46,837 bases of DNA, from sequence record PZ502447.1. One strand, 5' to 3'. Every line of letters starts with the position of its first letter. Within the stretch, counting starts at the first letter, position 1. Shown piece by piece: positions 3,094-35,886 of the stretch. The stretch is from a phage. The notes below the pieces were generated by a model. The model searched no databases. It was not told where the DNA came from and worked only from the letters and a program-made list of their open reading frames with translations. A program made the translations under genes and the position numbers.

Positions 3094-3157
3094 TTTTGTC
3101 TCCTTTGTTTATCTGATTGAGTGATTATAACTCAACAAATCCATTTGGTACAGACGT

Positions 3158-3179
3158 AAAAAAGCCCTCAGAAGAGGGC
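3158..3179 (-). terminator. intrinsic terminator after major capsid gene
   Basis: Minus-strand hairpin GCCCUC-UUCU-GAGGGC followed by a U run (plus-strand A-run 3158-3163), directly 3' of the capsid ORF stop. Confidence 0.6.
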
Positions 3180-3188
3180 CATTTATTA

Positions 3189-4127
3189 CTAGTAGGTAAT
3201 GCCTTTCATTACTGCCATCGTCAGAGGACGATATAAAATCAAACCTGTAGCCTTAGAGGTTACGGGGTACTTAAAGTGCAAGTCCTTAGGTTGACCAGGA
3301 AGCACATTGGTAGCCTCTGGAATCTCGATAGACATATTGAGCGGGTTCTTCTCAAATGCCATGGCAGCCTTACCACCTGCGCCATCGTAGTTATCCAGGA
3401 ACTGAAGATAACGCAGATTGATACCAGAGTTGTTGGTAGCGAACAGCTGAGCGTAACTGATAGAGGTGTTGGGAACCAGCTCTTGCATCAGGCGGCGAGC
3501 GGAAGCAGGCAGCAAAATATCAGTTGCGGTGTGAGTGCCATTAGTCGAAGTCTCGATTGCGTCAATAAGTGCTGTGATATCGGTCATGGCGGCAGCTGCG
3601 GAGTTCCACGTACCAGCAACAACGTTGTTGATGTTAGGATGGTTGAATACGCTAGGAATTCCGTGCGGAGCGGAACCAGACCAAACCAGTTTATCCAGCA
3701 GGTTGTCGTGCGCCTCGAAAGCCAGAGCCTGTTTTCGAGTTGACAGTGATTGACCAGTAGCAGCGCCAGCCTTGATTTCGTCAGTAGAAATCAGGAATGC
3801 GTTACCGAAACGGAACACTTTACCCTGTTTCTCAGTCATGAAAGCATCAACCAGCGGCAGGTCGTCAGAGTAATCAGCGATAATCTGAGCAATACCAACG
3901 CCATTAAATTCTGGATATTCGAAATACTTCGCGTGACCAGGAATTTCATTGGTTACAGGGAAGATATTAACAACGGAGTTGTCCGCATATTCTTTTTCGT
4001 AAGCGCGATTCAGAGTAGCCGCAAGCTGCTTAACGGTCCAGATACCAGCGGCATCAGCTTTCTCTACGCCCATTTGCTCGAGGTGAGCGGTGATTTTTGC
4101 TTGTTCTGCATCAAATTTAATGGCCAT
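3189..4127 (-). CDS. major capsid protein
   Basis: 312 aa ORF with ATG start and AAGGAA SD, flanked by terminators (as expected for a highly expressed gene), downstream of the scaffold gene; composition typical of HK97-fold capsid proteins. Confidence 0.8.
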   Translation of the reverse strand: MAIKFDAEQAKITAHLEQMGVEKADAAGIWTVKQLAATLNRAYEKEYADNSVVNIFPVTNEIPGHAKYFEYPEFNGVGIAQIIADYSDDLPLVDAFMTEKQGKVFRFGNAFLISTDEIKAGAATGQSLSTRKQALAFEAHDNLLDKLVWSGSAPHGIPSVFNHPNINNVVAGTWNSAAAAMTDITALIDAIETSTNGTHTATDILLPASARRLMQELVPNTSISYAQLFATNNSGINLRYLQFLDNYDGAGGKAAMAFEKNPLNMSIEIPEATNVLPGQPKDLHFKYPVTSKATGLILYRPLTMAVMKGITY

Positions 4128-4212
4128 TCTTTATTGTTCCTTTTCAGTTAGGTGTCTACGGATTCATTATACACGAGTTTTTAGCCCACGCAATGGTGTG
4201 GTGGATAGCAAT

Positions 4213-4234
4213 AAAAAAACCTCCCGAAGGAGGC
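4213..4234 (-). terminator. intrinsic terminator
   Basis: Minus-strand hairpin CCUCC-UUCG-GGAGG followed by a U7 run (plus-strand A-run 4213-4219), 3' of ORF 4254..4727. Confidence 0.55.
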
Positions 4235-4253
4235 TTTAATTTAGCTTTGTGAT

Positions 4254-4727
4254 TTACTTCTGTTTAACCTGAACTTCAACCAGGGCGCCATCAACGCTAA
4301 GGTTTTGTGGGTCTGTACCAGTGTTTGCGATGAAACCACCAGCAAAGGCCCAGCCGGTTGCCACGCCATCGGTTGTCACCACACCGTCTGAACTCACTAA
4401 AACAGCAGTGCCAAAGTTAGGCGACGCAGTAAGAGTGGTTCGCATCCAGATTCGTCCGGAGGTGAGAACATTTACCGCTGCTTTCGCTCGGGCTGTGCCA
4501 TCAGGAGTCTCGTAAGAGGATCGAACTACGACACCGAGCGCTGCGTTTGCAGCAATGCCACTTGCAACAACTGATTTATGGCCATCAATCAAAGGTTCAA
4601 GCGTTGAAACTCGAACAGCCGTTCCAACGGGGATTGCCGCTGCGCCGCCAACTACGCAAGCGCCGTCGATGTTGTACAGAGAAGTATCAGAAACCATACC
4701 AGCCAGTGCTGCGGAACGAATTGCCAT
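4254..4727 (-). CDS. putative head decoration / structural protein
   Basis: 157 aa Gly/Ala/Val/Thr-rich ORF between scaffold and major capsid genes; position-based call. Confidence 0.35.
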   Translation of the reverse strand: MAIRSAALAGMVSDTSLYNIDGACVVGGAAAIPVGTAVRVSTLEPLIDGHKSVVASGIAANAALGVVVRSSYETPDGTARAKAAVNVLTSGRIWMRTTLTASPNFGTAVLVSSDGVVTTDGVATGWAFAGGFIANTGTDPQNLSVDGALVEVQVKQK

Positions 4728-4739
4728 GTTTATAACTCC

Positions 4740-5864
4740 TTATTTCTTAATTTTAGCTAAACGAGCACGTGGGTCTAATTTCTTAGGCTCATCGGCGCTG
4801 TCAGATTTGTCGGAAGCAGTAGTTGCTTTACGTACTTCAGCCATTTTATCAGATTCTTTGGCAATGTCGAATGCCGCGTCGATGTATGCGTCAGACTTCT
4901 CACTAACATCAAGACCGGAGACTTCTTTAACGTAAGCAACTTTAATGCCTTTAGCATCCAGGCCATCAGTCTTAACACCAGCTTCAGTGGCTACAGTAAC
5001 CAGAGCGGCAAGTGCTTCAGCGTCAGCTTTGGCAGCTTTGACTGCTTTCTCGATTTCAGCGGGCATTGCGTCTACTTTGGCTTTCAGTGCGTCACGCTCA
5101 GCTTCAATGGTATCAGCTTTAGCTTTGGCGTCATCTGCGTCTTTCTTGATAGTTGCAATGTGTGCGGCAACTTCTGGAGCGATTTCGAACTCCTGAGCGC
5201 CATCCAGTTTAATCTTAACCATTTCTTTAACATCCTCTTTAATAGAATCAACGTTGTCAGTATACGGGTTTTCTTGCTGCCCGTCCATATTTAGCTTAGC
5301 AATTCCAGCCCTACCCCTGAACACCATGGCTAAGTGGTTTACCTTAATGTCTCGCTGGATTGCGTCGAACTCTTGCCAGTCAGGAGGTATGTCGAGCCCC
5401 TGTGTATTGTCACTTCTAAGGACATAATTACCAGTTGCAGGATCACCCCAACCTGGTGTCTCGTCAAGGACTGCCGAGTAACCTACAGATAATTCCTTAG
5501 CGTTACCTGAGCGAGCCTCGTCAATAGCTTCTTGAGAGTATACGACAATTGGCGCAATTACCGTACTTCCTAGAGCCTCAGCTTTACCAGTTACCGAGCC
5601 GACCACCACGTCTTTAGCGTTATCGGAGTTTACAAAGACGTGGTCAAGAGTCATTGGCTTACCCTGGTAACTGCCTAGCGACTCCTCTTTGAAGACTTCT
5701 TCTGCTGGCCTGAACTCTCGAACAGTCGAACCGTCCTCTGTGAAATAAACCTGCACACCAACCCTTGCTACTACTGGCGTATCGACGAGAAAACCATTCT
5801 CGTCAATGGTGGCTTTGAATGTTGCTGTATCAAAGCGATTCTTATACATCCCAATTCTCCTCAC
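4740..5864 (-). CDS. head scaffolding protein (possibly scaffold/protease-like)
   Basis: 374 aa ORF with a long Ala/Lys/Asp/Glu-rich predicted coiled-coil C-terminal half (KAKADTIEAERDALKAKVDA...), between head morphogenesis and capsid genes. Confidence 0.55.
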   Translation of the reverse strand: MRRIGMYKNRFDTATFKATIDENGFLVDTPVVARVGVQVYFTEDGSTVREFRPAEEVFKEESLGSYQGKPMTLDHVFVNSDNAKDVVVGSVTGKAEALGSTVIAPIVVYSQEAIDEARSGNAKELSVGYSAVLDETPGWGDPATGNYVLRSDNTQGLDIPPDWQEFDAIQRDIKVNHLAMVFRGRAGIAKLNMDGQQENPYTDNVDSIKEDVKEMVKIKLDGAQEFEIAPEVAAHIATIKKDADDAKAKADTIEAERDALKAKVDAMPAEIEKAVKAAKADAEALAALVTVATEAGVKTDGLDAKGIKVAYVKEVSGLDVSEKSDAYIDAAFDIAKESDKMAEVRKATTASDKSDSADEPKKLDPRARLAKIKK

Positions 5865-5897
5865 TAAAATCCATCGAATTCATCTTTCATCCTCATG

Positions 5898-6626
5898 TTA
5901 TGACTCCCAATCCGGCACAGCCCAACAACGACAGCCGTATTCCTGACCAGGGAAGAGATCGTTACCGCCCAACCTGAAGCTTAGGCTCTCTTTCTTGAAA
6001 TGGGTCATTCGCTCCCTTTCATCAAGCATGCCGTGCCAAATGTAATGGGTAACACCAGCATCCTCTAGCCTCCTGCGCATGAACGTAGAGTTAATACTGG
6101 ACGTGATGCCTGAGGCTATATTAGCAGTTCTCTTGCGGTAAATCTTGTACCTTTCGTTAATCTTAAGGTAGTCACCACTCTGTATGATTGATGCAGACTG
6201 AATAAAGTCGTCCTTGATATTGTTGAGTAACTTTTCAACGGACTTATTTGATGTGTAAAGCCACTGGTTTAAATCCGGCTGATACCAATCTTCATCTCCA
6301 TTTATACCGTTAAGTCTCAAGTCCATAACTGACTGGACCGAGCCGCCACCAGTCTTGATTGCCAGCACAAGAAACTGCGATGAATTATACCTGTATATTG
6401 ACGCTCCAATTGCCGGAAGTGTAGCTACAACAGAAGCTATAAGCGCTGCTATGATTGCGTCGAGATAATTATCTTCCTGCTCTAGCTCCTCGGCAGTGTC
6501 AATCTTAAGCCGCGTAGCTGATTCTTTCATTGCAGATATTAGCTCAGTTACCGCAACGCTAAGGTTGCGGTTTACCTGATTCTCAATTGTCTGCGGGTAC
6601 TTCCAGCGGGTCTTCACTGGTTTCAT
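5898..6626 (-). CDS. head morphogenesis protein (Mu F-like / SPP1 gp7-like)
   Basis: 242 aa ORF immediately downstream of portal; C-terminal Cys pair GCRCW typical of F-like minor head proteins. The ORF-track start overlaps the portal 3' end, so the true start may be internal. Confidence 0.55.
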   Translation of the reverse strand: MKPVKTRWKYPQTIENQVNRNLSVAVTELISAMKESATRLKIDTAEELEQEDNYLDAIIAALIASVVATLPAIGASIYRYNSSQFLVLAIKTGGGSVQSVMDLRLNGINGDEDWYQPDLNQWLYTSNKSVEKLLNNIKDDFIQSASIIQSGDYLKINERYKIYRKRTANIASGITSSINSTFMRRRLEDAGVTHYIWHGMLDERERMTHFKKESLSFRLGGNDLFPGQEYGCRCWAVPDWES

Positions 6627-9915: not shown

Positions 9916-10422
9916 TTACGCTCTCGTATTTGGGTAGCCTTTATTTTCAGAGCCATGATTTTCATGATATCCGTTCAATTTGTCATACTGTGACCTTGCC
10001 AATGCAGCCTCCTCTATAGTGTCCTTGTAGCATATGAAGACTGTTTTACCAAACTCCATAGCCTGAACAAGCCATCTATTCTCTCTTTTGCACCAGCTTA
10101 CACCGTTTATTCCGCTTTTATTTCTTGATGATAGTGATCTGTTATTTGAGTTCTCTTTATTGCTTACTAACCTTAGGTTCTCTATTCTATTGTCACTTCT
10201 ATTTTGGTTTATGTGATCTATGTACATGCCTTTAGGGATTGATCCATTGTGCATCTCCCACACCACCCTGTGACACCTGTATGCTTTTTGTCTATACTTT
10301 AGTATCACATAGCCAAATTTATCAACTCTTCCAGCCACCTCTCCAACCTTTGATACATTTGCTACTTTTACCTTTCTTATTAAAAGCCCGTCTCTATATT
10401 CAAAAATATCATGCCAATTCAT
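9916..10422 (-). CDS. HNH homing endonuclease (AP2-HNH type)
   Basis: 168 aa; HNH core IDHINQNRSDNRIENLR; N-terminus MNWHDIFEYRDG shared with the HNH at 28006; strongly AT-rich; inserted between the terminase subunit genes. Confidence 0.85.
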   Translation of the reverse strand: MNWHDIFEYRDGLLIRKVKVANVSKVGEVAGRVDKFGYVILKYRQKAYRCHRVVWEMHNGSIPKGMYIDHINQNRSDNRIENLRLVSNKENSNNRSLSSRNKSGINGVSWCKRENRWLVQAMEFGKTVFICYKDTIEEAALARSQYDKLNGYHENHGSENKGYPNTRA

Positions 10423-10618
10423 ATCGTCACCTCGTTAAGTTAGTGCCAATTATCTCATTGATTGGGCCGATTCCTTTAACAAAAAGTGCTAAATTAGCCA
10501 TAATTTCACCAATCCAACCATCACGCCAATTAAGAATCCAGTTGTGAAGCACATTGACGCTATCATGTAATATCCCAATAAAGCCTTAATAACTTTTATC
10601 ATACCGACCCCTATGTTC

Positions 10619-11143
10619 TTACAGCTTACCAATCACAGACTCAAGCGCTTCCTTCATCGTATCTACGTCGTTAGCTGAAGAGTTGTTGCTGATAGTAATC
10701 TCCTGCGGCTTGTCGATTCCAAGCTCTTTGGAAATCATGCCCGGGTTAACGATGCCAGATGCAGCCAACTGATATTTCTGCTCACGAATCACTGAATCAA
10801 TGAACGCAATCACCTCATCATAACCAGCAGACTTTCGCCATTTCTCGATGGCGCCATGGGTAACACCGCAGTAAAGGCAGAAACCTGTTAGCGTGAAGAC
10901 TCGCGGCTTATGCACCAGGCTCTCGGTCACTACACCCTGGAAGCTAGCCGTCTCAATTGCCTTGATCGCCTGACTCTCTGCCCATGAGAAGTATTTCACA
11001 GCCAGGTCAAATAGCTGCTCTGGTGTCATGATTCGGTTTTTGGCTAGCGTTGTAATGTCTGAGTACTTTTTATTGTACATGGCTTTAAAGTTGCCAGAGC
11101 GGACCTTTTCTTGCGCCTGACTGGTGAAGTTTTCGTCTTTCAT
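10619..11143 (-). CDS. terS: terminase small subunit
   Basis: 174 aa, ATG with GGAGG SD; helix-turn-helix-like segment FTLTGFCLYCGVTHGAIEKW resembling small-terminase DNA-binding domains; located upstream of the terminase large subunit. Confidence 0.6.
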   Translation of the reverse strand: MKDENFTSQAQEKVRSGNFKAMYNKKYSDITTLAKNRIMTPEQLFDLAVKYFSWAESQAIKAIETASFQGVVTESLVHKPRVFTLTGFCLYCGVTHGAIEKWRKSAGYDEVIAFIDSVIREQKYQLAASGIVNPGMISKELGIDKPQEITISNNSSANDVDTMKEALESVIGKL

Positions 11144-11190
11144 TTTGTTACCTCCTTTGTTTAGAGATGCATTATATCATATAGCAAACG

Positions 11191-11214
11191 AAAAAAAGCC
11201 CTCAAGAAGAGGGC
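11191..11214 (-). terminator. intrinsic terminator separating early small-gene block from packaging genes
   Basis: Minus-strand hairpin GCCCUC-loop-GAGGGC followed by a U7 run (plus-strand A-run 11191-11197). Confidence 0.55.
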
Positions 11215-11267
11215 GAAGTATCGAACAACAACGAGAGATATGAAACAAACAGAGAGTAGAACTTCTT

Positions 11268-11456
11268 TTACTTTCGCTCACGAACGTAAGCTACTAGGAA
11301 TTTGTGGTAATCCGGGTCGGCACCAGACATTACCTTAACTTTCGCTACTGCTTCCTCTGAGGACTTAGCAGTAACCGACGCGATAAATTCTTGAGTGCAA
11401 CTTTTGCAACTACGACCCATTAATCGGATTGAAAGCTTAACATCCCAGAGCTGCAT
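11268..11456 (-). CDS. hypothetical protein
   Basis: 62 aa ORF overlapping the stop of the upstream gene; Cys-containing. Confidence 0.4.
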   Translation of the reverse strand: MQLWDVKLSIRLMGRSCKSCTQEFIASVTAKSSEEAVAKVKVMSGADPDYHKFLVAYVRERK

Positions 11457-11649
11457 TTTTTATCTTCCCGCTCTGATTGCTATAGTTTTGAGTTTCTCTT
11501 TCAAGCTCGAGATAACCTTTAATATCCGCGCTAACTGAAACCCCGCCAATCACACCCTTTAAGCATTTATGTTCACGGTCAAGTGTTGCGTTGAATTTTT
11601 GGGAAGTGCCGCTTTCAATATCTTTTACGATGATTGTTACTTTTTTCAT
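11437..11649 (-). CDS. hypothetical protein
   Basis: 70 aa ORF, ATG with GGGGGA SD, immediately downstream of the tRNA. Confidence 0.5.
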   Translation of the reverse strand: MKKVTIIVKDIESGTSQKFNATLDREHKCLKGVIGGVSVSADIKGYLELERETQNYSNQSGKIKNAALGC

Positions 11650-11680
11650 TTAATCCCCCAGGATTATTGGTTTCTTAATT

Positions 11681-11756
11681 TGGTGTTCCGCACTGGACTC
11701 GAACCAGTAACTAAGACTTAGGAGGTCTTTGCGTTATCCTGTTACGCCAGCAGAAC
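11681..11756 (-). tRNA. tRNA-Arg (anticodon CCU)
   Basis: 76 nt on minus strand folds as a cloverleaf: acceptor GUUCUGC/GCGGAAC (one G-U), U8, D-stem GCGU/ACGC with GG in the D-loop, anticodon stem AAGAC/GUCUU, loop CUCCUAA (U33, CCU, A37), T-arm ACUGG-UUCGAGU-CCAGU, discriminator A, encoded CCA. Confidence 0.8.
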
Positions 11757-11944
11757 AAATCCTTGAGTAGCGATTGCGCTATTGAAGGATTGCTGGTTAC
11801 GCTTCCAGCGTCGAGTTTCTCGACCGATTTCGCCATATACGCTGCTTAGTGAGCTATGGACTTTGTGTTGCGCTCCGTGCGCCGTTGCCACTTGGTGGCC
11901 TCGTCTGTCTACAGTTGTTAATGTACCAGCCAGGGTTAGATGTG

Positions 11945-12145
11945 TCAACTTACTCTTTCGAATTTCCCATAATTCTGGTCATACGGGTAGTCAATGCTCA
12001 CCAATTCGCCATTATCGCTGTAGCAGAATACGTGGCCAGTCTTCGATACCTTTTCGACCTGGTAATCGCATCCATCCATGAAGTCATCCGATGCCGCCTT
12101 TGTGCACTTGATAGCATCGCCTTTCTTAATAATTTTATTCATCAA
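11945..12145 (-). CDS. hypothetical protein
   Basis: 66 aa ORF; start overlaps the upstream stop (ATGA). Confidence 0.45.
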   Translation of the reverse strand: MMNKIIKKGDAIKCTKAASDDFMDGCDYQVEKVSKTGHVFCYSDNGELVSIDYPYDQNYGKFERVS

Positions 12146-12348
12146 AACTCCTCAGTTATAAGCATCTTGCCACAATCTTTGCACTCGTAGAACGCACATG
12201 TTTCACCTATTGATACAATTGGTTTTGTTGACTCGTGGTATGCAGAGCTTATCGCCTTAATGTCAAAATCGTTAATGATTGATGTGAACACGTAAATGTA
12301 ATGATGTTTGTGATTATTGTCGTTATCACTCATAAAGGCTATTCCCAT
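12142..12348 (-). CDS. hypothetical protein
   Basis: 68 aa ORF, Cys-rich C-terminus (CAFYECKDCGK); its first 8 codons and RBS are duplicated at 12454-12485. Confidence 0.45.
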   Translation of the reverse strand: MGIAFMSDNDNNHKHHYIYVFTSIINDFDIKAISSAYHESTKPIVSIGETCAFYECKDCGKMLITEEF

Positions 12349-12357
12349 TCTCTAACC

Positions 12358-12473
12358 TAATTCAATGTAAATATGAAGAAAATCATCCCAATTGCCGTAG
12401 CCATAGCCAATCCGATGGCGATCAGAGTTAGTACTAAATCAATGATAATATCACTCATAAAGGCTATTCCCAT
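12358..12473 (-). CDS. small hydrophobic protein (38 aa, predicted membrane)
   Basis: Hand-translated ORF MGIAFMSDIIIDLVLTLIAIGLAMATAIGMIFFIFTLN, below the ORF-track size cutoff; shares its start module with 12142..12348. Confidence 0.35.
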
Positions 12474-12687
12474 TCTCATCATGACCCACACGCCCTCGAC
12501 GATAGCCCGCTATCCACACAAACTTATCACGTGCGATTATCGTGGATACCGGCCCCCATATCTGAGTGATAAGCGCCGCAACAACCTTATCATCTTTCTT
12601 TTTTGCGCCCAATTTGCCGTATTCGTCATTCAGCTTGTCAGCCTGTCGCTTAACTGCGTTAAAGTATGCGTCGTCTAACCCGAACAT
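12451..12687 (-). CDS. hypothetical protein
   Basis: 78 aa ORF, ATG with GAGAGG SD located in a conserved leader downstream of a promoter module. Confidence 0.5.
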   Translation of the reverse strand: MFGLDDAYFNAVKRQADKLNDEYGKLGAKKKDDKVVAALITQIWGPVSTIIARDKFVWIAGYRRGRVGHDENGNSLYE

Positions 12688-12743
12688 TTTCTAACCTCTC
12701 GCTGTTTGATATATAAATTATATGGCATCCATGCCTTTGGTGT

Positions 12744-12884
12744 TTAGCTATTCGTGCTGTTTATTTTATCTTCACGCTCCTTCCATAGATTCATCAGCTC
12801 GAAGTACATCATGGCAACCTCGCCAGTCTTAGCCTCATCCATCATCCGTTTAGCCCACTGGCTTGGTGTTTCGTAGTTATCCAT
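12744..12884 (-). CDS. hypothetical small protein (46 aa)
   Basis: Hand-translated ORF MDNYETPSQWAKRMMDEAKTGEVAMMYFELMNLWKEREDKINSTNS; start overlaps the upstream stop (TAATG). Confidence 0.35.
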   Translation of the reverse strand: MDNYETPSQWAKRMMDEAKTGEVAMMYFELMNLWKEREDKINSTNS

Positions 12885-13045
12885 TAGTAAACAAGAGCCT
12901 CGTGGTTTGCTATGTAAAGCTCCTCATCGTGCTTGTTTTTAATGAAGTACCCATTGCCATCTTCGCTAGGCTCTGCATAGAATACGTCGCCATGCTTTAA
13001 GCGCGCCATATAATCATCCTCACCAATATATACGATCTTAATCAT
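12884..13045 (-). CDS. hypothetical small protein (about 53 aa)
   Basis: Hand-translated ORF MIKIVYIGEDDYMARLKHGDVFYAEPSEDGNGYF...; coupled to the downstream gene. Confidence 0.35.
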   Translation of the reverse strand: MIKIVYIGEDDYMARLKHGDVFYAEPSEDGNGYFIKNKHDEELYIANHEALVY

Positions 13046-13063
13046 GCAATCACCTCACTTAAA

Positions 13064-13198
13064 TTATAGTTCGTTAGAATCGCTTTTAGCGTCATCTACG
13101 GCTGCTGAAATCATGTAAATAATCATGAAGCCCAATAACCAGAGTAACCATGGCAATGCTTCAACCAGAACTTCATCCATCATTAACCCAGTATTCAT
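13064..13198 (-). CDS. small membrane protein (44 aa)
   Basis: Start moved to ATG MNTGL with GAGGA SD downstream of the HNH stop; hydrophobic segment ALPWLLWLLGFMIIYMISAAV. Confidence 0.45.
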   Translation of the reverse strand: MNTGLMMDEVLVEALPWLLWLLGFMIIYMISAAVDDAKSDSNEL

Positions 13199-13208
13199 TT
13201 CTCTATCC

Positions 13209-13631
13209 TCAGATTTTGTTAATTTGCTCAAACTTCTCAAACCAGAAAACAACTGGATCCTCCACTATGGAGATGAGGCCGAACCGCTCTGCCGTGCGAA
13301 AATTCATGCTGCTCTTACGCCCGCGAGCGACTTGAAGAGACACCTGTTCCCTGAACATTTCAAGGGAATAGCAAGTTTTCATGAGGTTGCATGGAGCACA
13401 TGCAGGGTAAAGGTTTTCCATTCGATCAGCTTGTGGTCGATTAAACTCACCTGTCGCCTTCAGCTTGAAAGTTCCTTTCTCCGCTGCCTTCATGCATACC
13501 TCAGATTTACGTAGCACCGGTTCAACATGGTCAGCATGCCAGCCTTTCTCAGGTAGTTCACACCCACAATAAGCGCAGCGACCACCGAACTTGCCCTTCA
13601 ACTCTTCCCTTTGAGATTTGCTTAATTTCAT
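13209..13631 (-). CDS. HNH endonuclease (classic zinc-finger HNH)
   Basis: 140 aa; CAYCGC...HADHVEP...CAPCN motif arrangement of the HNH fold. Confidence 0.75.
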   Translation of the reverse strand: MKLSKSQREELKGKFGGRCAYCGCELPEKGWHADHVEPVLRKSEVCMKAAEKGTFKLKATGEFNRPQADRMENLYPACAPCNLMKTCYSLEMFREQVSLQVARGRKSSMNFRTAERFGLISIVEDPVVFWFEKFEQINKI

Positions 13632-13641
13632 TTTATAAACC

Positions 13642-13821
13642 TTAAATTTTATTCAATTGATCAAGAATCTCGAAAGCCAGTTCTCGAGCTTGCTCTTCAT
13701 TTAAGTGGATAGTATGAACCTTAGGTTCATCATGCAAACCGAAAGCCTGGGCTATGATAAATGTTGTGTAACCATCGAAGTTGTTAGCCTGGAGCTTGGC
13801 GGCTGATTGTCTAAAACGCAT
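13642..13821 (-). CDS. hypothetical protein
   Basis: ORF-track start is TTG; an ATG 2 codons in has a GAGGAA SD and is used here (59 aa). Confidence 0.45.
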   Translation of the reverse strand: MRFRQSAAKLQANNFDGYTTFIIAQAFGLHDEPKVHTIHLNEEQARELAFEILDQLNKI

Positions 13822-13896
13822 CGTCAATTCCTCATCTCGTTTTGATGGGATAAGTATAACAACCTATCCCAATTCATGTTTATCAATTCGTGCTAT

Positions 13897-14040
13897 TTAT
13901 AATTCTTCAACTACTTCGCATCGATGCACGGCACCACCAAGAACATCCATCTGAGCTTTTGCTTCCTTGTAGGATTCATAAACTCGCACGTGCTTAACGC
14001 TGTTAAACTTACCTGTATAGTACGTGTGAACGTAAATCAT
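13897..14040 (-). CDS. hypothetical small protein (47 aa)
   Basis: Hand-translated ORF MIYVHTYYTGKFNSVKHVRVYESYKEAKAQMDVLGGAVHRCEVVEEL; start overlaps the upstream stop. Confidence 0.35.
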   Translation of the reverse strand: MIYVHTYYTGKFNSVKHVRVYESYKEAKAQMDVLGGAVHRCEVVEEL

Positions 14041-14216
14041 TTCTTCACCATGACATGTCTAAAGCTCTCTTTAATGTCATGCATGTAGTAGCATCTAGTT
14101 TCATCATACTTGCCATCAATACTTTTCAGGATGACGCAATTTCCATCAGTGTATTCAATGATGAATCTGTTCAATGTGTGCTTGCTGTAAATCTCATCTC
14201 CTTTTTTATAAATCAT
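14037..14216 (-). CDS. hypothetical small protein (about 58 aa)
   Basis: Hand-translated ORF MIYKKGDEIYSKHTLNRFIIEYTDGNCVILKSIDGKYDETRCYYMHDIKESFRHVMVKK; ATGA overlaps at both ends. Confidence 0.4.
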   Translation of the reverse strand: MIYKKGDEIYSKHTLNRFIIEYTDGNCVILKSIDGKYDETRCYYMHDIKESFRHVMVKK

Positions 14217-14446
14217 TTCTTTGTCGCCTTATCCCAGTTAGTGAGGTAGCCAGCATTCTGGATGCTTAGAGCTTCGTACTGGCGAGATGACTCGAAGTCT
14301 GATACGTCGAATTGCTGGTTGTTGATTTGTGCTCCAGTCTCTTTTACGACACGCATCTGCTCAAAGGTCAGCGTTGAATGCATTTGCTTCATGATGATTG
14401 ATTTAAGGATTGCTGCATCTTTCTCTGACAGGTTAATTGTAATCAT
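14213..14446 (-). CDS. hypothetical protein
   Basis: 77 aa ORF, ATG overlapping the upstream stop (ATGA). Confidence 0.45.
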   Translation of the reverse strand: MITINLSEKDAAILKSIIMKQMHSTLTFEQMRVVKETGAQINNQQFDVSDFESSRQYEALSIQNAGYLTNWDKATKK

Positions 14447-14673
14447 TTCGTTTGTTCCAGGTAAGTTTTCATCTTGTTCAGTGAGTCTATTGCGTCATCA
14501 AGGTCTGTGATAACATCCTTGTGACCTCGTAAACCCATGCAGAGCAGCTTTTTGATTGCATGCTGACATGCTGGGTCTGTAACGTTGAACGCTGATAGCG
14601 TGCGATACACATCAACAACAGCCCGCTCGCCATTAAGCCCAGTAATCTCTCTTTCATATTTGTTCCTATCCAT
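14443..14673 (-). CDS. hypothetical protein
   Basis: 76 aa ORF downstream of a promoter module at 14731-14751. Confidence 0.45.
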   Translation of the reverse strand: MDRNKYEREITGLNGERAVVDVYRTLSAFNVTDPACQHAIKKLLCMGLRGHKDVITDLDDAIDSLNKMKTYLEQTK

Positions 14674-14749
14674 CCCACCCTCTCTTGCTTTGCTTTAATA
14701 AGGCCACTATATCAAATTGCCTTGCGGAAGGTTTAACAATTTGTGCTAT

Positions 14750-14935
14750 TCAAAACTTAACATCAATTATGACTTCAACCATCTCCTGCCCAAGCCGGTA
14801 GGAGTCGCCCCAAAGAAGTAGTCCCATAAACTCATCCTTACTAAAAGTGTTGGCATTTACAGTTCTAAGATAGCCACGATGGATAACAGTATCGCCAATC
14901 TTAACTTCGCTCTTATGTACCATTTTAGTTTTCAT
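14750..14935 (-). CDS. hypothetical protein
   Basis: 61 aa ORF in the leftward early block. Confidence 0.4.
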   Translation of the reverse strand: MKTKMVHKSEVKIGDTVIHRGYLRTVNANTFSKDEFMGLLLWGDSYRLGQEMVEVIIDVKF

Positions 14936-14990
14936 GCTGTTTCTCCAGTTGTCTTATTGAGGCACCCCGCGAGATGCCTTGTAAGATAAC

Positions 14991-15179
14991 TCAGTAGCAG
15001 GTAGCCAGGAAGTCGGCGATACCTTTTGAGGTTGCTTCCGGCATACTACGTACTGCAACATCGTAACCAGCCTCAACCTTTGCAATCGCTGACTCTTCGT
15101 TGTATCCGAACATTGTCAGGATGGTGATTACGTTTTCTTTATTCAGGACTTTAAGTTCTTTAGTGATGCGCTTAGCCAT
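14991..15179 (-). CDS. hypothetical protein
   Basis: 62 aa ORF downstream of a promoter module at 15247-15265. Confidence 0.45.
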   Translation of the reverse strand: MAKRITKELKVLNKENVITILTMFGYNEESAIAKVEAGYDVAVRSMPEATSKGIADFLATCY

Positions 15180-15362
15180 TTTCGTTTTCCTTTGTGCCTC
15201 TCGTTTCGATGAGGTAATTATGCCATCCTTGGCGTCATATCGTTAGGCAAAAAGTGCTATTTCCCACTCAGTAGTAATTTAGCTTTCCGATATAAATCCA
15301 TAGCCACCTCAACCTCATCCTCACTGTACCGCGGATGGTATGGTAGTCTACTACCATACCCA

Positions 15363-15884
15363 CTATTTAGTCTCCTTAATCATTTCTTGGTATGCGTTAA
15401 TCATTGATACTGCACCATTAAGTTCATCACCTTCAAGACCAGCGACGCTTGGTGATAGTTTTAACAATCGAGCCTTGAACCTTTCAATGGTAGCCGCCTC
15501 CTTCTCTTGCTCTGCTTTGCTTCTTGAGCCGGATTTTACAGCGCCAGGAACCAGGCTAAGTGATGCGCAGTATGTCTCACTCTCGCCCTCAAAGTCGGTA
15601 AAACTAAGTGAGAACCTTGAGCGCACGTCAGCCGCCTTAATCTCAGGCATTCGGCTTACGGTGTTTGAAACGTATGACGCTTTTAGTTTTGGCATGTGGT
15701 ATTCACCACCAGGTAGAACCTCCTCACCACTTAGCGATACGAACGTCTCACGACTCATGCCGAAGTATTGACGAGCAATCATGGTCACAGGGACTGTGCA
15801 CACTTTGTCTTCTGACTTGAGCGCCTGACTCGCCATGTATCGAATGATTTCACCCAAACTTACTGCTTCTTTATGTTCTGACAT
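15363..15884 (-). CDS. hypothetical protein (first leftward early gene)
   Basis: 173 aa ORF, ATG with AGGAG SD, first gene transcribed leftward from the large control region. Confidence 0.55.
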   Translation of the reverse strand: MSEHKEAVSLGEIIRYMASQALKSEDKVCTVPVTMIARQYFGMSRETFVSLSGEEVLPGGEYHMPKLKASYVSNTVSRMPEIKAADVRSRFSLSFTDFEGESETYCASLSLVPGAVKSGSRSKAEQEKEAATIERFKARLLKLSPSVAGLEGDELNGAVSMINAYQEMIKETK

Positions 15885-15974
15885 ATTCGTTACTCCTGAT
15901 TGGTTGCTCTTCGTTAAGATGAAACCATGGTATCATGAATATACGCGTTATCAAGTGTTATGTTGTGTTTATAT

Positions 15975-16030
15975 CTGCATTGGTTACGCTTTTTGACCTC
16001 TCAGCCCAGCTATAGCTGGTGTAATTACCC
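15975..16030. repeat. duplicated control-region block 1 (copy A) with perfect palindrome CCAGCTATAGCTGG
   Basis: ATTGGTTACGCTTTTTGAC...GCCCAGCTATAGCTGG; near-identical block at 35223-35280. The 14 bp perfect palindrome is at 16006-16019. Confidence 0.6.
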
Positions 16031-16145
16031 TGTGTAAGATTTTACGCGGATTCGCCGGGGGTATGCATATGTATCTATATAGATAAAATTAGTAGTTTTC
16101 ATAGAAAAACTATCGACCCATCCATACGACCAATCTACACCATAT

Positions 16146-16212
16146 ACATACATATATATAATAATAATAATAATATAGTAAAAGGTTGATATATATAGAT
16201 ATTATTATGTAA
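16146..16212. repeat. duplicated control-region block 2 (copy A) with (TAA)n microsatellite
   Basis: ATATATATAATAATAATAATA...AGTAAAAGGTTGATATATATAGATATT..ATGTAAC; near-identical block at 35404-35468, at the same roughly 120 bp spacing from block 1. Confidence 0.6.
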
Positions 16213-16483
16213 CCATTGCGTAATCTCGCGTGGTAGGCGTGTATGATTCTTCGGAAGCGCACCTCATATACACACCATAACTTCGATAACGTGTATATCC
16301 AAATTGGCTCAGCAAGAATCAAAATCAACTTGTATGGTAGTTCATCCACCATTCATTCACCCCACATCAATCATTGCAAATTCTGCAACAATCAAAAACA
16401 TCATTGCATTCCATGCAATATTGCTATATGTGCAATAATCATGATAATCATTGCAATAGCTGCAACAATAGATAAATCCAACG

Positions 16484-16556
16484 AATAGCACTTTTTGCTA
16501 ATGACAAAAACTGGCGACGAGGCCATAATGAATCCATCAACAACGAGGAGAGAGAT
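16484..16556 (+). promoter_or_regulatory. conserved promoter module for rightward early operon
   Basis: AATAGCACTTTTTGCTAATGAC, then CATAAT, then leader CCATCAACAACGAGGAGAGAG, then ATG at 16557. Confidence 0.55.
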
Positions 16557-21540: not shown

Positions 21541-22088
21541 CTATTTATTACGTGCATTACCAAAGCAGAGGTTCCATCAATATCACCATCTACAACATGA
21601 ACGTCAATTTCTCTTGCGCAGACACCGCGAATGTAGGAGCGGCTATCTCCATCAAAAGTATAGCCAGGCCTAAAAAGTCTAATCAAAGTAACTTCAACCC
21701 CTGAATCAATGAGAGTATTAATCTCGCTAGCGAAGCCACCATCAGCACAGATATAGCAACCATCACCAAGTGATTGCGCTAGCCTTTTACCGAAAACATC
21801 ATCACCAAAGACTGGCTTCATAACTGACTCACTAATCCAAATCATAAATTCACGAACCGTCATTCCACCAAGAAATTCATGTGGTGATTCTTTGTACTCT
21901 CGGTCATCGTAATTCTTAATAAATTCATCAAACTCATCGCTTGATAGTATTCCTTTTGCAACATTAAACATTGGTGACTTGAATGAAACCTTATCCTTGC
22001 AAATTCCAAGATTAACAATGATATCTGCAACTGTATCTTTTCCAGCACCAGGGGGTGCATTAAGGATGATTAACTTTTTCATTTTCAC
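21528..22088 (-). CDS. deoxynucleoside monophosphate kinase-like P-loop kinase
   Basis: 186 aa; P-loop NAPPGAGKDT and overall resemblance to T4 gp1 dNMP kinase (GKDT..AD, RPG motifs). Could alternatively be a polynucleotide kinase domain. Confidence 0.55.
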   Translation of the reverse strand: MKMKKLIILNAPPGAGKDTVADIIVNLGICKDKVSFKSPMFNVAKGILSSDEFDEFIKNYDDREYKESPHEFLGGMTVREFMIWISESVMKPVFGDDVFGKRLAQSLGDGCYICADGGFASEINTLIDSGVEVTLIRLFRPGYTFDGDSRSYIRGVCAREIDVHVVDGDIDGTSALVMHVINSTNC

Positions 22089-22558
22089 TCTCCGTGAGAT
22101 TCGCAGTCTTTAGGTGGTACTTTATATTCACAAACTGACATTACAGTATATCCGCAATTCCTTAGGTGACTGATAACATTTGGATTATCCTCAAAGATTA
22201 TTACATTTTTCTTATCACCTTTACATAAATCATTTAACCACTTTTCTTTAATTATGTAGTCTTTGCTATTGTCAAATCGACTCCTCATATATATTCCATC
22301 ATACTCAATATCATTACACTGAAGCCATTCAAGCGTCATACATTCGACTTCGTCACTTCTTGAAGTCATGATGTAAACTGGCGATAACTCAGCTAACGCA
22401 TTCATCATGTTTATCATTGGAATTATCGGTGAATCTCCAGAACAGGCTCTATTGTAATCACTCCAACTTGAAGTCAAGTGAAGGTCACTAGATGGTAAGA
22501 GGTGGCTTCTATGTTCATTGTTAGCAATAGTTCCATCAATATCAAACACGTAAATCAT
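22085..22558 (-). CDS. HAD-superfamily phosphatase
   Basis: 157 aa; N-terminal FDIDGT motif (DxDGT, HAD motif I); start overlaps the kinase gene. Confidence 0.6.
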   Translation of the reverse strand: MIYVFDIDGTIANNEHRSHLLPSSDLHLTSSWSDYNRACSGDSPIIPMINMMNALAELSPVYIMTSRSDEVECMTLEWLQCNDIEYDGIYMRSRFDNSKDYIIKEKWLNDLCKGDKKNVIIFEDNPNVISHLRNCGYTVMSVCEYKVPPKDCESHGE

Positions 22559-28005: not shown

Positions 28006-28485
28006 ATGAACTGGCATGATTATTTTTACTATGTAGATGGCAAATTGCATTGGAAGATTAGCACTGCAAGACGTGTTAAGGTTGGCGATGAGTGCAACTC
28101 ACTATCTACATCTGGCTATTACAAAGTGTCTGTTAATGGCTTTAGGACTTATGTACATAGAGTTGTGTGGGAGATGTTTAATGGAGAACTTCAAAATGGC
28201 GACTACATTGATCATATAAACCATAACAAATTAGATAACAGAATAGAAAACCTAAGAGTAACAACAAATCAAGGTAACTCAAGAAATTGCAAGCTTAGCG
28301 TTTTATCAACAACTGGTTATTGTGGAGTAGCAAAGCTAAATCACGGAAAATTTAAGGCTCACATCAAGGTTGACGGTAAGCAGCTACACCTTGGGAACTT
28401 CGATACTCCAGAGCAGGCGTATAAAGTAAGAATTGAAGCAGAGAGAAAATGCAACTTTCACGAAAATCACGGGTTAAGCAAATGA
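28006..28485 (+). CDS. HNH homing endonuclease (AP2-HNH type)
   Basis: 159 aa; IDHINHNKLDNRIENLR HNH core; N-terminus MNWHDYFYYVDGKLHWK paralogous to the HNH at 9916; inserted directly upstream of primase with an ATGA overlap. Confidence 0.85.
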   Translation: MNWHDYFYYVDGKLHWKISTARRVKVGDECNSLSTSGYYKVSVNGFRTYVHRVVWEMFNGELQNGDYIDHINHNKLDNRIENLRVTTNQGNSRNCKLSVLSTTGYCGVAKLNHGKFKAHIKVDGKQLHLGNFDTPEQAYKVRIEAERKCNFHENHGLSK

Positions 28486-32051: not shown

Positions 32052-32537
32052 TCAGTAGTAAAGATGTTCCGCTTGCTTTCTTGCCTTTAATGCGGACTCA
32101 AACGTTTCGAATCGTCCTAGATGTATTTTTCTACCGTTTACAGTTATGGACGCATCGTATTTTCCCTTATTAAAATGTACACCACCGCACCCCGTCTTAT
32201 TGTTTACTCTTACACCTAAATTGTGCATGTTGCCTGTTCTGTTGGTTTTCAGTAGGTTTGCGTAGGCATTATTTGCTCTATTCCTGTCAATATGGTCAAT
32301 TTCAATATCACCACTCAAAGAACCTTCAACGAAGGCAACCGCAAGCCTGTGAGCTTGGAATCGCTCTCCGTTGATGTTTATGCCTATGTATCCATTCCTA
32401 AGCGAACCTGAATTCGAACCTACATCTACACGCCGCGATGTGGGAATAATCCATGAAAAGATCCCTGATTCTGTACCGTAGGATAGGTGACGCATTGCTG
32501 CGTCAACCACATCTTTTGTTATGTCTTTGTATTTCAT
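32052..32537 (-). CDS. HNH homing endonuclease
   Basis: 161 aa; IDHIDRNRANN HNH core and NKTGCGGVHFNKGKYDASITVNGRKIHLGRFETFESA AP2-like tail. Confidence 0.8.
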   Translation of the reverse strand: MKYKDITKDVVDAAMRHLSYGTESGIFSWIIPTSRRVDVGSNSGSLRNGYIGININGERFQAHRLAVAFVEGSLSGDIEIDHIDRNRANNAYANLLKTNRTGNMHNLGVRVNNKTGCGGVHFNKGKYDASITVNGRKIHLGRFETFESALKARKQAEHLYY

Positions 32538-35554: not shown

Positions 35555-35640
35555 AATAGCACGAATAGCTAAAGACAAAGATTATAGATGATGTATGATT
35601 ACTCCATCGAAACGAAATGCTCATTATAAGGAACAAGAAA
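35555..35640 (+). promoter_or_regulatory. conserved promoter module for rightward lipoprotein operon
   Basis: AATAGCACGAATAGCTAAAGAC, 22 nt, TATGAT, then leader CCATCGAAACGAAA, then AAGGAA SD and ATG at 35641. Confidence 0.55.
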
Positions 35641-35886
35641 ATGACTAACTTAATCAAACTTTCAATCATCGCCGCAGCAGCAATCATGATGGTAGGTTGT
35701 TCTTCTGCTCCGCGACCAGACGGATGGTGTGCAACGCAAGCAAACGGCGTGTGCGTGGCTAAATGGGAAAATGGTGTGGTTGTACCGTCTGGTGAAGTTG
35801 ATGTGCGATACGCTGGTATTGAGAGCAAGGCTGGCGGCGGTTACGGTGGCTCTGTTGCTGACCATGGGTCTAAGGAGTGGAAATAA
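35641..35886 (+). CDS. small lipoprotein, candidate Cor-like superinfection exclusion protein
   Basis: 81 aa from ATG MTNLIK (AAGGAA SD); signal peptide ending in lipobox-like MVGC; Gly-rich mature part; located beside the J/receptor-recognition region as cor genes are in related phages. Confidence 0.5.

Follow-up and report, generated by a model that had tools for sequence, protein, structure and literature searches.

A variable cluster of small genes between the non-coding genome-end region and the terminase gene of an Rtp-like coliphage

The dense run of very small open reading frames (ORFs) on the minus strand at 11268-15884 of the phage record PZ502447.1 raises the question whether such short frames are genes at all and, if so, what kind of gene set they form. 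The window, that is the whole stretch of 46,837 nucleotides analysed here, is approximately the whole genome of a coliphage of the Drexlerviridae (Braunvirinae, Rtp-like), about 97% identical to the Braunvirinae phages AN_ECEAS and ES. The initial annotation had described a leftward block of at least 18 tiny genes between a control region and the packaging genes, and our results agree with this: the block, which holds 18 protein genes and one tRNA gene, has a 672-nt non-coding region on one side and the packaging genes on the other, and its chain of 18 ORFs, here numbered g1 to g18 from the non-coding region onwards, all on the minus strand, occupies 3831 of 4617 bases (83%).

One might suppose that many or even all of the sub-60-aa ORFs are random frames in non-coding or regulatory DNA. 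Several of them fall under the usual gene-caller thresholds. PHROG matches are lacking for g14 and g15, of which the former is unannotated in relatives and the latter is called in just one of them, and the exact sequences of both are absent from a collection of 15 billion proteins. However, the best tiling of the block by ATG-initiated ORFs reaches 84%, far above the 30 ± 7% (maximum 49%) of 300 dinucleotide shuffles, and it is strand-specific; antisense ORFs of the block were inspected for conservation and none is conserved. Moreover, the ORFs with a diverged homologue are under purifying selection, with dN/dS of 0.02-0.41 for nearly every measurably diverged pair, the sub-60-aa ORFs and the 33-aa g14 included, the sole outlier being one highly diverged g18 pair at 0.67. 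The lengths of the small ORFs are kept across homologues that are 40-70% identical, the small ORFs other than g14 and g15 match PHROG families with E-values of 1e-14 to 1e-41, and the AN_ECEAS allele of g14 still encodes 33 aa with a transmembrane segment at 32% nucleotide divergence. The 18 ORFs are genuine protein genes, and the chance-frame explanation is highly improbable. In fact, the five sub-60-aa ORFs singled out beforehand all exist; homologues from other phages are known for four of them (PHROG E 1e-14 to 1e-22), and AN_ECEAS and ES contain a 33-aa counterpart of the fifth (12357-12473), with a dN/dS of 0.24. That some of these genes escape annotation is also correct, since g14 is unannotated in AN_ECEAS and ES and g15 in AN_ECEAS, and both are uncalled in the closer public assemblies.

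The good Shine-Dalgarno sequences reported at many starts are seen as Shine-Dalgarno-like motifs upstream of most non-overlapping starts. As to the tight coupling claimed for the block, ATGA overlaps join g4/g5, g5/g6 and g6/g7, and other overlaps measure 1 nt at g11/g12 and g15/g16, 8 nt at g13/g14 and 20 nt at g17/g18; but the coupling holds only inside five sub-units, and the block is not a single coupled unit because four gaps of 56-183 nt each hold a promoter-like cassette. The family-wide repeat aaATAGCACnnnTTGnTAAAA has four copies in the block, each followed by a -10-like hexamer. These minus-strand cassettes lie before g2 (15180..15263; repeat AAATAGCACtttTTGccTAAc, spacer hairpin, CATAAT, leader CATCGAAACGAGAG and a Shine-Dalgarno sequence), before g4 (14674..14752, where a mosaic breakpoint also falls in the comparison with the closer relatives L032-L037), before g8 (13822..13899; AAATAGCACgaaTTGaTAAAc and then TATACT, with a hairpin across the -10, z -4.9) and before g13 (12688..12763; AAACAGCACgaaTaGcTAAAc and then TATAAT), and they align with one another through the repeat, a hairpin-forming spacer, the -10-like hexamer and a conserved leader CATCGAAACGA. 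The window as a whole has about 15 good copies of the repeat (17 at no more than 3 mismatches), and AATAGCAC occurs 11 times against 2.0 expected, every time on the local coding strand. Outside the block, cassettes precede the genes of a 527-aa replication-type, a 664-aa helicase-type and a 216-aa recombinase-type protein, the first three probably being the primase, helicase and recombinase genes, and of a phosphatase; the copies near 10493 and 29470 have no obvious -10 or downstream gene.

The repeat is also contained in T1 and Rtp, and the passages of the TLS report that deal with it describe a 21-nt direct repeat aaATAGCACnnnTTGnTAAAA about 76 nt upstream of start codons, for which a stoperator, an enhancer site and an UP element are weighed as further roles (PMC11447400). 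As far as those passages go, the two repeats are alike in consensus, in orientation with transcription and in lying about 75 nt from start codons, whereas the hairpin spacer, the -10-like hexamer and the leader of the window copies are not among the TLS features described there (PMC11447400). Judged from these arrangements, the four cassettes probably split the block into five transcription units. Host sigma-70 RNA polymerase would then transcribe g1, g2-g3, g4-g7, g8-g12 and g13 onwards as short units, four of the five headed by a putative promoter composed of repeat, hexamer and leader, and translation would be coupled inside each unit. A terminator-like hairpin on the minus strand (11191..11214, GCCCTC-ttctt-GAGGGC followed by T7) closes the block and could act as an intrinsic terminator ahead of a distinct promoter for the terminase, namely the extended -10 TGATATAAT (11171-11179, minus strand), located between the hairpin and the small terminase gene TerS (10619-11143, phrog_606).

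The expectation that most of these genes are probably undescribed does not hold. Existing PHROG families of unknown function already include 15 of the 18 proteins, the HNH endonuclease among them; three proteins match Pfam DUFs (DUF7174, DUF7421 and DUF7180), a fourth carries a DUF8272 tag in public annotation, and ten genes recur in the published genome of Rtp, of T1 or of both. By its sequence relationships the block is the counterpart of Rtp rtp1-rtp18 and T1 gp77-gp55, and it is the known mosaic small-gene cluster upstream of the packaging genes in all T1/Rtp-like coliphages; it is therefore ordinary, the cluster being already well known across this group. The Rtp and T1 clusters are placed and oriented like this one, with the non-coding genome-end region followed by small genes, a terminator and the small terminase, and they share ten genes and the repeat elements with it, but about half of the genes differ. 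An Stp-like peptide and a polynucleotide kinase are encoded in the Rtp block but not in the one here, a Pnk-phosphatase-like gene lying instead outside it at 22085-22558, and the HNH gene inserted here is of a different family from that of the Rtp/T1 clusters.

A presence/absence matrix of 29 related loci separates a backbone of about eight genes, in conserved order across Braunvirinae, from variable ones. The backbone begins with g1 (15363..15884; 173 aa, DUF7174 / phrog_4841, rtp1 homologue), the first gene past the non-coding region, and continues with g4 (14443..14673; 76 aa, rtp5 homologue, dN/dS 0.06-0.19), g5 (14213..14446; 77 aa, DUF7180 / phrog_16063, rtp7 homologue, dN/dS 0.16-0.20), which is ATGA-coupled with g4, and g7 (13897..14040; 47 aa, phrog_3955, rtp9 homologue, dN/dS 0.12-0.35), which occurs in 12 related loci, mostly with a length of 44-49 aa and in a few fused to other domains. 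Then follow g8 (13642..13821; 59 aa from ATG, or 61 aa from an alternative TTG at 13827; phrog_7411, rtp11 homologue, dN/dS 0.08-0.41), g12 (12744..12884; 46 aa, phrog_1312, the bearer of the DUF8272 tag, rtp12 homologue, dN/dS 0.10-0.16), g13 (12451..12687; 78 aa, phrog_303, homologue of rtp15 and T1 gp59, dN/dS 0.02-0.05) and g18 (11268..11456; 62 aa, phrog_2919, homologue of rtp17 and T1 gp56), whose dN/dS is 0.11-0.14 against Braunvirinae relatives and reaches the outlying value only for the most diverged pair. The g4 product represents, in stand-alone form, a phage domain of very wide distribution (HxHY...DVYRVL...HAxKKLLxxGxRG), a family of more than 5000 clusters without a curated model in Pfam or NCBIfam. 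Its predicted fold of two short strands and three helices (pLDDT 88) bears a distant resemblance to structure predictions with the labels DUF3310, SaV-like or nucleotide kinase (TM 0.6-0.7, prediction against prediction), although identity to DUF3310/SaV-like proteins is only 14-24% and there is no Pfam DUF3310 match at E<0.1.

Between these genes, the comparison of sequences shows g2-g3, g6, g9-g11, g14-g16 and g17 as gene-sized modules whose insertion or exchange took place precisely at gene boundaries or repeat cassettes; identity breakpoints coincide with gene junctions and with the cassette at 14730. The variable inserts g2 (14991..15179; 62 aa, DUF7421 / phrog_7717) and g3 (14750..14935; 61 aa, phrog_3623) stand side by side, and the insertion of g6 (14037..14216; 59 aa, phrog_27617) falls precisely at the g5/g7 boundary, these two genes being adjacent in relatives. 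The next module carries the HNH endonuclease gene g9 (13209..13631; 140 aa, phrog_2118, Pfam HNH; HNH motif with CxxC pairs), the sole enzymatic signature found by PHROG and Pfam, as had been stated. It is present at this site only in close relatives of the window (AN_ECEAS, ES and assemblies L032-L039), and in relatives without it g8 is directly followed by g12. Mobile HNH genes have been noted in the T1-like family (PMC13164509), and g9 is like the free-standing HNH homing endonucleases of T1-like phages in being sporadic and missing from the same site in relatives; the four T1 gp63-like HNH genes elsewhere in the window, however, belong to a PHROG different from that of g9, whose cleavage or homing activity is putative. 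The module also holds g10 (13064..13198; 44 aa, dN/dS 0.35, homologues in 9 phage records), with a single predicted transmembrane helix and an acidic C-terminus, and g11 (12884..13045; 53 aa, phrog_38524).

Past g13, the micro-ORF g14 (12357..12458; MSDIIIDLVLTLIAIGLAMATAIGMIFFIFTLN) overlaps the g13 stop codon with its start and has a dN/dS of 0.24 against the AN_ECEAS allele. It had been cited as 12358-12473; its stop codon begins at 12357, and translation likely starts at the ATG at 12458, coupled with the end of the preceding gene, which gives a product of 33 aa. The gene is flanked by a pair of perfect 29-nt direct repeats (12324-12352 and 12449-12477, span 12324..12477), which duplicate the junction of the g13 3' end with the start of the next gene; in AN_ECEAS two membrane micro-ORFs lie in tandem at this site. 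The remaining members are g15 (12142..12348; 68 aa, or 63 aa from the ATG at 12333; dN/dS 0.34), with homologues in 8 phage records, g16 (11945..12142; 65 aa, phrog_4927, T1 gp58 homologue) and g17 (11437..11649; 70 aa, phrog_16862, rtp16 homologue).

What these genes do can be approached from their setting. Runs of small, mostly non-enzymatic proteins ahead of the replication or structural genes make up the early host-takeover genes of T7 (class I) and T5 (pre-early). By analogy the block, a run of small non-enzymatic proteins whose homologue in Rtp holds a peptide like T4 Stp, may be comparable to them, although no sequence or fold similarity of any block protein to these sets or to Stp was detected. 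The idea that this is the typical location of host-takeover and anti-defence genes has some basis, because the Rtp block carries two genes of counter-defence type, but among known anti-defence and host-takeover proteins and solved structures no block protein found a relative by sequence or fold, and a search of the block for an Stp homologue was negative. Position and shared promoter elements make early accessory or host-interaction genes plausible. Taken as a whole, the block is probably best explained as the variable small-gene arm that separates the non-coding genome-end region from the terminase genes in all Drexlerviridae, organised in five units with accessory roles. More tentatively, the products may be non-enzymatic binders made before the structural genes: those of the backbone would meet a requirement conserved among the phages, whereas the swappable ones, two single-pass membrane peptides included, would act as accessory factors in host interaction or counter-defence.

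Other assignments have to be weighed against this. The ES GenBank record (OR466728) labels g11 "endolysin", g10 "u-spanin", g2 "capsid maturation protease" and g3 "head morphogenesis protein", yet that some block genes serve lysis or morphogenesis is hardly credible: for these proteins of 44-79 aa neither Pfam nor PHROGs gives a lysozyme, peptidase or head-protein domain, g10 lacks cysteine and therefore cannot be a lipoprotein spanin, and the same genes are named "hypothetical protein" in AN_ECEAS and Rtp. Less remote, though in our view still unlikely, is that the block or the part of it nearest the terminase (g13, g16-g18) serves DNA packaging, the recognition of genome ends or replication and is not host-directed accessory cargo. 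Beside the small terminase, g13 and g18 are present in 27 of the 29 loci, T1 included, and g16 in 18; g13 has a dN/dS of only 0.02-0.05; and the pac/genome-end region of T1-like phages lies within the non-coding stretch adjoining the block (PMC7718038). Against it, the terminator and a separate promoter separate g18 from the terminase gene, a search of the block proteins detected no DNA-binding or packaging domain, and the variable genes clearly act as swappable cargo. For g13 and g18 themselves, family-wide conservation and strong constraint in most comparisons fit a core function better than an arms-race one, possibly related to packaging or replication.

The membrane products pose a further choice. 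"Several" membrane-targeted proteins had been claimed, which is overstated; two are confirmed as hydrophobic (maximum Kyte-Doolittle 19-residue means of 2.0 and 2.5), and none of the other block products exceeds 1.5. These two, g10 and g14, could be toxic membrane-depolarising peptides or superinfection-exclusion factors instead of inhibitors of host defence, a reading that we hold to be doubtful but somewhat stronger than the packaging one: each has one hydrophobic helix, the tandem at the g14 site of AN_ECEAS is in line with it, and a separate Cor-like lipoprotein candidate is encoded at 35617-35886, so that envelope-directed small proteins belong to the repertoire of this phage, but neither peptide has homology to any characterised one.

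Besides the protein genes, the block contains a tRNA-Arg with anticodon CCU (11681..11756, minus strand; ARAGORN, Rfam 58.9 bits) and an encoded CCA end, which the initial annotation had overlooked. Its position is conserved in relatives, and Rtp has a tRNA-Arg at the matching spot with anticodon UCU instead of CCU. It would decode AGG, a codon heavily used in the large phage genes, accounting for 27% of Arg codons in ORFs of at least 150 aa.

The block of small genes on the minus strand at 11268-15884 is an ordinary accessory arm, known from earlier work, of a T1/Rtp-like phage whose genome is 97-99% identical to public sequences. In megablast searches 89% of the block is covered by Escherichia phage AN_ECEAS at 97.1% identity and 85% by Escherichia phage ES at 97.0%, both of which belong to the Drexlerviridae, subfamily Braunvirinae, and the next matches are patchy and come from Rtp-like phages; closer relatives were found among public assemblies, for example the 46.4-kb contig of GCA_029117115.1, with 97.4-99% identity over 10619-14329. 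As the window has 46.8 kb, approximately 43-45% G+C and gene blocks switching strand, it is an essentially complete T1/Rtp-like genome. The block has the non-coding genome-end region on one side and the small terminase gene (TerS, 10619-11143, phrog_606) on the other, and it shares the strand of the latter. An identical arrangement is seen in the records of Rtp, where the arm consists of rtp1-rtp18 followed by TerS rtp19, and of T1, where it consists of gp77-gp55 followed by gp54, and such arms are already known in the literature as small-ORF clusters without assigned function. The non-coding region (15885-16556, 672 nt) is A+T-rich (37% G+C) and separates the divergent small-gene arms. Runs of ATA/ATATA and several repeats of the ATTGCA/TGCAAT type (for example at 16373-16465) occur in it, and it is the counterpart of the starts of the Rtp and T1 records, namely the genome-end or pac region.

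The density of ORFs described in the initial annotation is right and well above chance. Eighteen minus-strand ORFs, g1-g18 from right to left, fill 3831 of the 4617 bases (83%), and the best non-overlapping tiling by ATG-initiated ORFs of at least 33 aa reaches 84%, against 30 +/- 7% (maximum 49%) in 300 dinucleotide shuffles. The 4-nt ATGA overlaps are present at g4/g5, g5/g6 and g6/g7, together with overlaps of 1 nt at g11/g12 and g15/g16, 8 nt at g13/g14 and 20 nt at g17/g18, and the Shine-Dalgarno sequences are seen as GGAG/GAGG-type motifs 5-10 nt upstream of most free-standing starts. Two details have to be amended: the ORF placed at 12358-12473 is present but its end coordinate is actually 12357, and the coupled ORFs do not form one string but are interrupted by four gaps of 56-183 nt.

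Matches in PHROGs were obtained for 15 of the 18 products (E from 2e-8 to 7e-55), three products fall in Pfam families without assigned function (g1 in DUF7174, g2 in DUF7421, g5 in DUF7180), and g12 bears a DUF8272 tag in public annotation; the expectation that most of these genes are undescribed is wrong for the families, though it is true for function. A tblastn search of 29 related loci recovered homologues that are 40-96% identical and of conserved length, and for the three proteins lacking a PHROG (g10, g14 and g15), homologues of g10 occur in 9 phage records and those of g15 in 8. The dN/dS ratio (Nei-Gojobori) is 0.02-0.41 in nearly all pairs with measurable divergence, for example 0.12-0.35 for g7, 0.08-0.41 for g8, 0.35 for g10 and 0.10-0.16 for g12; the sole exception is the g18 pair with the greatest divergence (44% identity), with 0.67. 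Long ORFs on the antisense strand, of up to 143 aa, were ruled out as genes, since homologues do not conserve them. Taken together, the family matches, the conserved homologues, the dN/dS values and the lack of conservation of the long antisense ORFs show that the ORFs are real genes.

Comparison with relatives revealed a conserved backbone with swappable cargo. By tblastn, nine Rtp and three T1 counterparts were found for ten window genes in total, and they are colinear: g1 corresponds to rtp1, g4 to rtp5, g5 to rtp7, g7 to rtp9, g8 to rtp11, g12 to rtp12, g13 to rtp15 and T1 gp59, g16 to T1 gp58, g17 to rtp16, and g18 to rtp17 and T1 gp56. The Braunvirinae relatives keep the order g1, g4, g5, g7, g8, g12, g13, g18, TerS, with g5 adjoining g7 and g8 adjoining g12. 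In the window, g6 is inserted exactly at the g5/g7 junction and overlaps each neighbour by ATGA, and 1 kb comprising g9 (HNH), g10 and g11 is inserted between g8 and g12; likewise, among the 29 loci g2-g3, g14-g16 and g17 are confined to close relatives or common only to T1-type phages. Unlike the window's block, the Rtp arm carries rtp6, a 30-aa Stp-like peptide, and rtp4, a polynucleotide kinase. A tblastn search of the window with rtp6, whose T4 Stp-like sequence is ...MQFYRxNLKTKGVFG, gave no match at E<=0.01, and where rtp6 lies in Rtp, g4 and g5 of the window overlap directly; a Pnk-phosphatase-like gene is found elsewhere in the window, at 22085-22558. Identity to AN_ECEAS falls at g6/g7 and g14/g15, and identity to the closer assemblies falls only at 14330-14729, a segment with a different g4/g5 allele and with one edge on a promoter-like cassette at approximately 14730.

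At the g14/g15 site, g14 is flanked by a direct repeat of 29 nt without mismatches (12324-12352 and 12449-12477), which duplicates on both sides the junction of the g13 end with the start of the next gene. The only counterpart of g14 is in AN_ECEAS/ES, unannotated, 61% identical, also exactly 33 aa and hydrophobic; of the changes between the two, 14 are synonymous and 18 non-synonymous (dS 1.19, dN/dS 0.24). In AN_ECEAS the site holds two unannotated tandem membrane micro-ORFs between the g13 and g15 homologues (3597-3813 of that locus), of 29 aa (MSKDFQEFLESIAIGIFIGFVFMAVLTVV) and 33 aa (MNDIIIDLVLTLIAVVLAIATGAGMLLLVMRLS). Moreover, in all closer public contigs g14 and g15 are uncalled, leaving a 308-nt gap in which both ORFs are intact. 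A test for paralogy inside the block, suspected in the form of SH3-like repeats in g3, g6, g11 and g16, gave no significant similarity, and the only within-block match, the 8-residue N-terminus common to g14 and g15, is encoded by the 29-nt DNA repeat.

Four gaps of the block align with one another in a layout of AAATAGCAC-nnn-TTGnTAAAc, a stretch of some 17-18 nt, in most cases hairpin-forming, a -10-like hexamer (TATAAT, TATACT, TATAGT or CATAAT), a leader similar to CATCGAAACGAGAG, a Shine-Dalgarno sequence and ATG. The whole window has 11 copies of the core AATAGCAC, where 2.0 would be expected and no more than 6 were seen in any of 100 shuffles, and each copy lies on the same strand as the genes around it. 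A generic sigma-70 scan alone was uninformative, with 19 sites vs 17 expected. The recurrent cassette, of about 75 nt, comprises the family repeat aaATAGCACnnnTTGnTAAAA, a spacer prone to hairpins (z averaging -2.6, with five spacers below -4.5), the hexamer and a conserved leader CATCGAAACGA; the repeat sits in intergenic gaps, oriented with transcription, and contains a 5-bp inverted repeat TAGCA-N5-TGCTA, whose centre would lie near -41/-42 if the hexamer is a -10 element. Allowing one mismatch there are about 15 full cassettes genome-wide. Positions recorded for the recurrent element are 8346, 12761, 13897, 14750, 15261, 21545, 22633, 24973, 27469, 29470 and 33735 on the minus strand and 16484, 17297, 18077 and 35555 on the plus strand; the repeat itself has about 15 good copies in the genome, or 17 at three mismatches or fewer, and 4 copies are in the block. 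Outside the block, cassettes precede genes for a 527-aa replication-type, a 664-aa helicase-type and a 216-aa recombinase-type protein, as well as those for a phosphatase, a lipoprotein and several small genes. One cassette-headed ORF (35617-35886, 89 aa) has a lipoprotein signal and is a candidate for a Cor-like superinfection-exclusion lipoprotein.

T1 and other relatives have 6-9 copies of the same element in equivalent regions. In the TLS re-annotation (PMC11447400), the 21-nt direct repeat aaATAGCACnnnTTGnTAAAA is reported at 21 sites approximately 76 nt upstream of start codons and also in T1, Rtp and Rogue1, with a stoperator, an enhancer site or an UP element offered as its role. The repeat is thus already published, and what we add is the inverted repeat, the hairpin-prone spacers and the leader. 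Near 10493 and 29470 there are copies without a -10 hexamer or a downstream gene, and therefore the repeat itself may serve to bind a protein. Downstream of g18 lies a terminator-like hairpin, GCCCTC-ttctt-GAGGGC followed by T7 (11191-11214), after which comes an extended -10 element, TGATATAAT, ahead of TerS. From the cassettes and the terminator we infer that the block would be read as five transcription units (g1; g2-g3; g4-g7; g8-g12; and g13 to the terminator), each with translational coupling inside it. The cassette is common to the block and the replication/recombination genes, and a terminator and a different promoter precede the terminase gene; it seems reasonable, judging from this layout, that the block is made of early (pre-replicative) genes. 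A literature search turned up neither a transcriptome nor a functional study of these genes for Drexlerviridae.

As to the proteins, the claim that a single HNH is the only enzymatic motif holds: searches of the 18 products against Pfam, PHROGs and NCBIfam otherwise gave DUFs and PHROGs of unknown function. For g9 the Pfam HNH score is 23.0 bits (cut-off 21.4) and the match to phrog_2118 has E 7e-55, with a readable motif CAYCGC...HADH...N...CAPCN containing zinc-binding cysteine pairs. It is an insertion polymorphism, present in the window while relatives have g8 adjoining g12, and such a pattern fits a mobile element, putatively a homing one. Besides g9, four more T1 gp63-like HNH genes lie at 9952-10410, 791-1201, 28015-28476 and 32076-32468; one of them separates the small terminase gene from the large one, as rtp20 does in Rtp. 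Several membrane-targeted products had been anticipated, and a transmembrane-grade hydrophobic stretch is indeed found in g10 and g14, but only in these two.

The protein g4 (14443-14673; proteins P0171-P0319) is part of a very large family, with homologues throughout phages. Its 72-aa domain, HxHY..DVYRVL..HAxKKLLxxGxRG, accounts for 5167 clusters at 50% identity in an exhaustive profile search, no Pfam or NCBIfam model covers the family, and the domain is found stand-alone or fused at either end of phage or prophage proteins of up to 324 aa. Among ten longer members, the partner domains matched no Pfam domain save one with RF-1 (release-factor-like). The predicted model of g4 is a confident small alpha/beta fold without a PDB match, and it distantly resembles structures annotated as DUF3310, SaV-like or nucleotide kinase, with predicted models on both sides of the comparison; membership in Pfam DUF3310 was rejected, there being no match at E<0.1. 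For g1 (DUF7174) the predicted model is moderately confident and had no significant fold match. By sequence, the PDB gave nothing for the g4 profile, nor at E<3 for 14 concatenated small proteins with phmmer, and the characterised inhibitors with solved structures (Ocr, ArdA, Gad, Tad, Acb etc.) matched neither by phmmer nor in fold to the g1 and g4 models.

Some labels in the public record are misleading. In ES (OR466728), proteins of 44-79 aa are labelled endolysin, u-spanin, phosphoesterase, head morphogenesis, capsid maturation protease and DNA helicase (1895-2209, 3114-3260, 3794-4274 and 5600-6000 of that locus), with no Pfam or PHROG support. The "endolysin" g11 has no Pfam or PHROG lysis match, and the "u-spanin" g10 has no cysteine and therefore cannot be a spanin lipoprotein. 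AN_ECEAS labels the HNH gene "DNA repair ATPase".

About half of the genes in T1-like phages have no assigned function. A role of the block genes in host takeover or anti-defence would be a reasonable reading by analogy. Rather doubtful, though worth keeping in mind, is the more specific idea that at least one swappable module is a new small host-directed effector, for instance a protein that inhibits a bacterial defence system or a takeover peptide that acts on the membrane, and that the cassettes are perhaps also binding sites of a putative regulator, which at these repeat-hairpin-leader elements may time the expression of the block genes. Candidates for such an effector are g14 (33 aa, unannotated, membrane), g10 (44 aa, membrane) and g4. 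The discovery value is small, considering that the cluster, the gene families and the repeat are already in the literature or databases and the phages are 97-99% identical; the novelty is modest and lies in the backbone/cargo split, the two ORFs missed by pipelines, the hairpin and leader features of the repeat and the large uncurated g4 family. The practical value is an annotated candidate list of 18 genes, conserved backbone versus swappable cargo, which also flags the two ORFs skipped by automated pipelines and the misleading public labels. Since T1-like phages are easily engineered, it would be reasonable to take the variable modules into screens against defence systems, by deletion or by expression.

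Finally, a tRNA-Arg(CCU) absent from the initial annotation occupies 11681-11756, within the 295 nt that separate g16 from g17, as detected by ARAGORN (anticodon CCT) and by Rfam (RF00005, 58.9 bits vs a 29-bit threshold), and it is the only non-coding RNA that Rfam found in the block. A homologous tRNA-Arg is absent from T1-type phages and occurs at the equivalent spot in Braunvirinae-type relatives (for example at 4893-4969 of locus L030, and in L003, L004, L008, L009 and L025), with anticodon CCU in some and UCU in others. Counted roughly, with the ORFs left uncurated, 27% of the Arg codons are AGG in window ORFs of at least 150 aa and 9% in the block genes. This usage fits codon supplementation for large, presumably late, genes, and a role against anticodon nucleases is speculation. 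In L009, a tRNA-Trp adjoins the tRNA-Arg.
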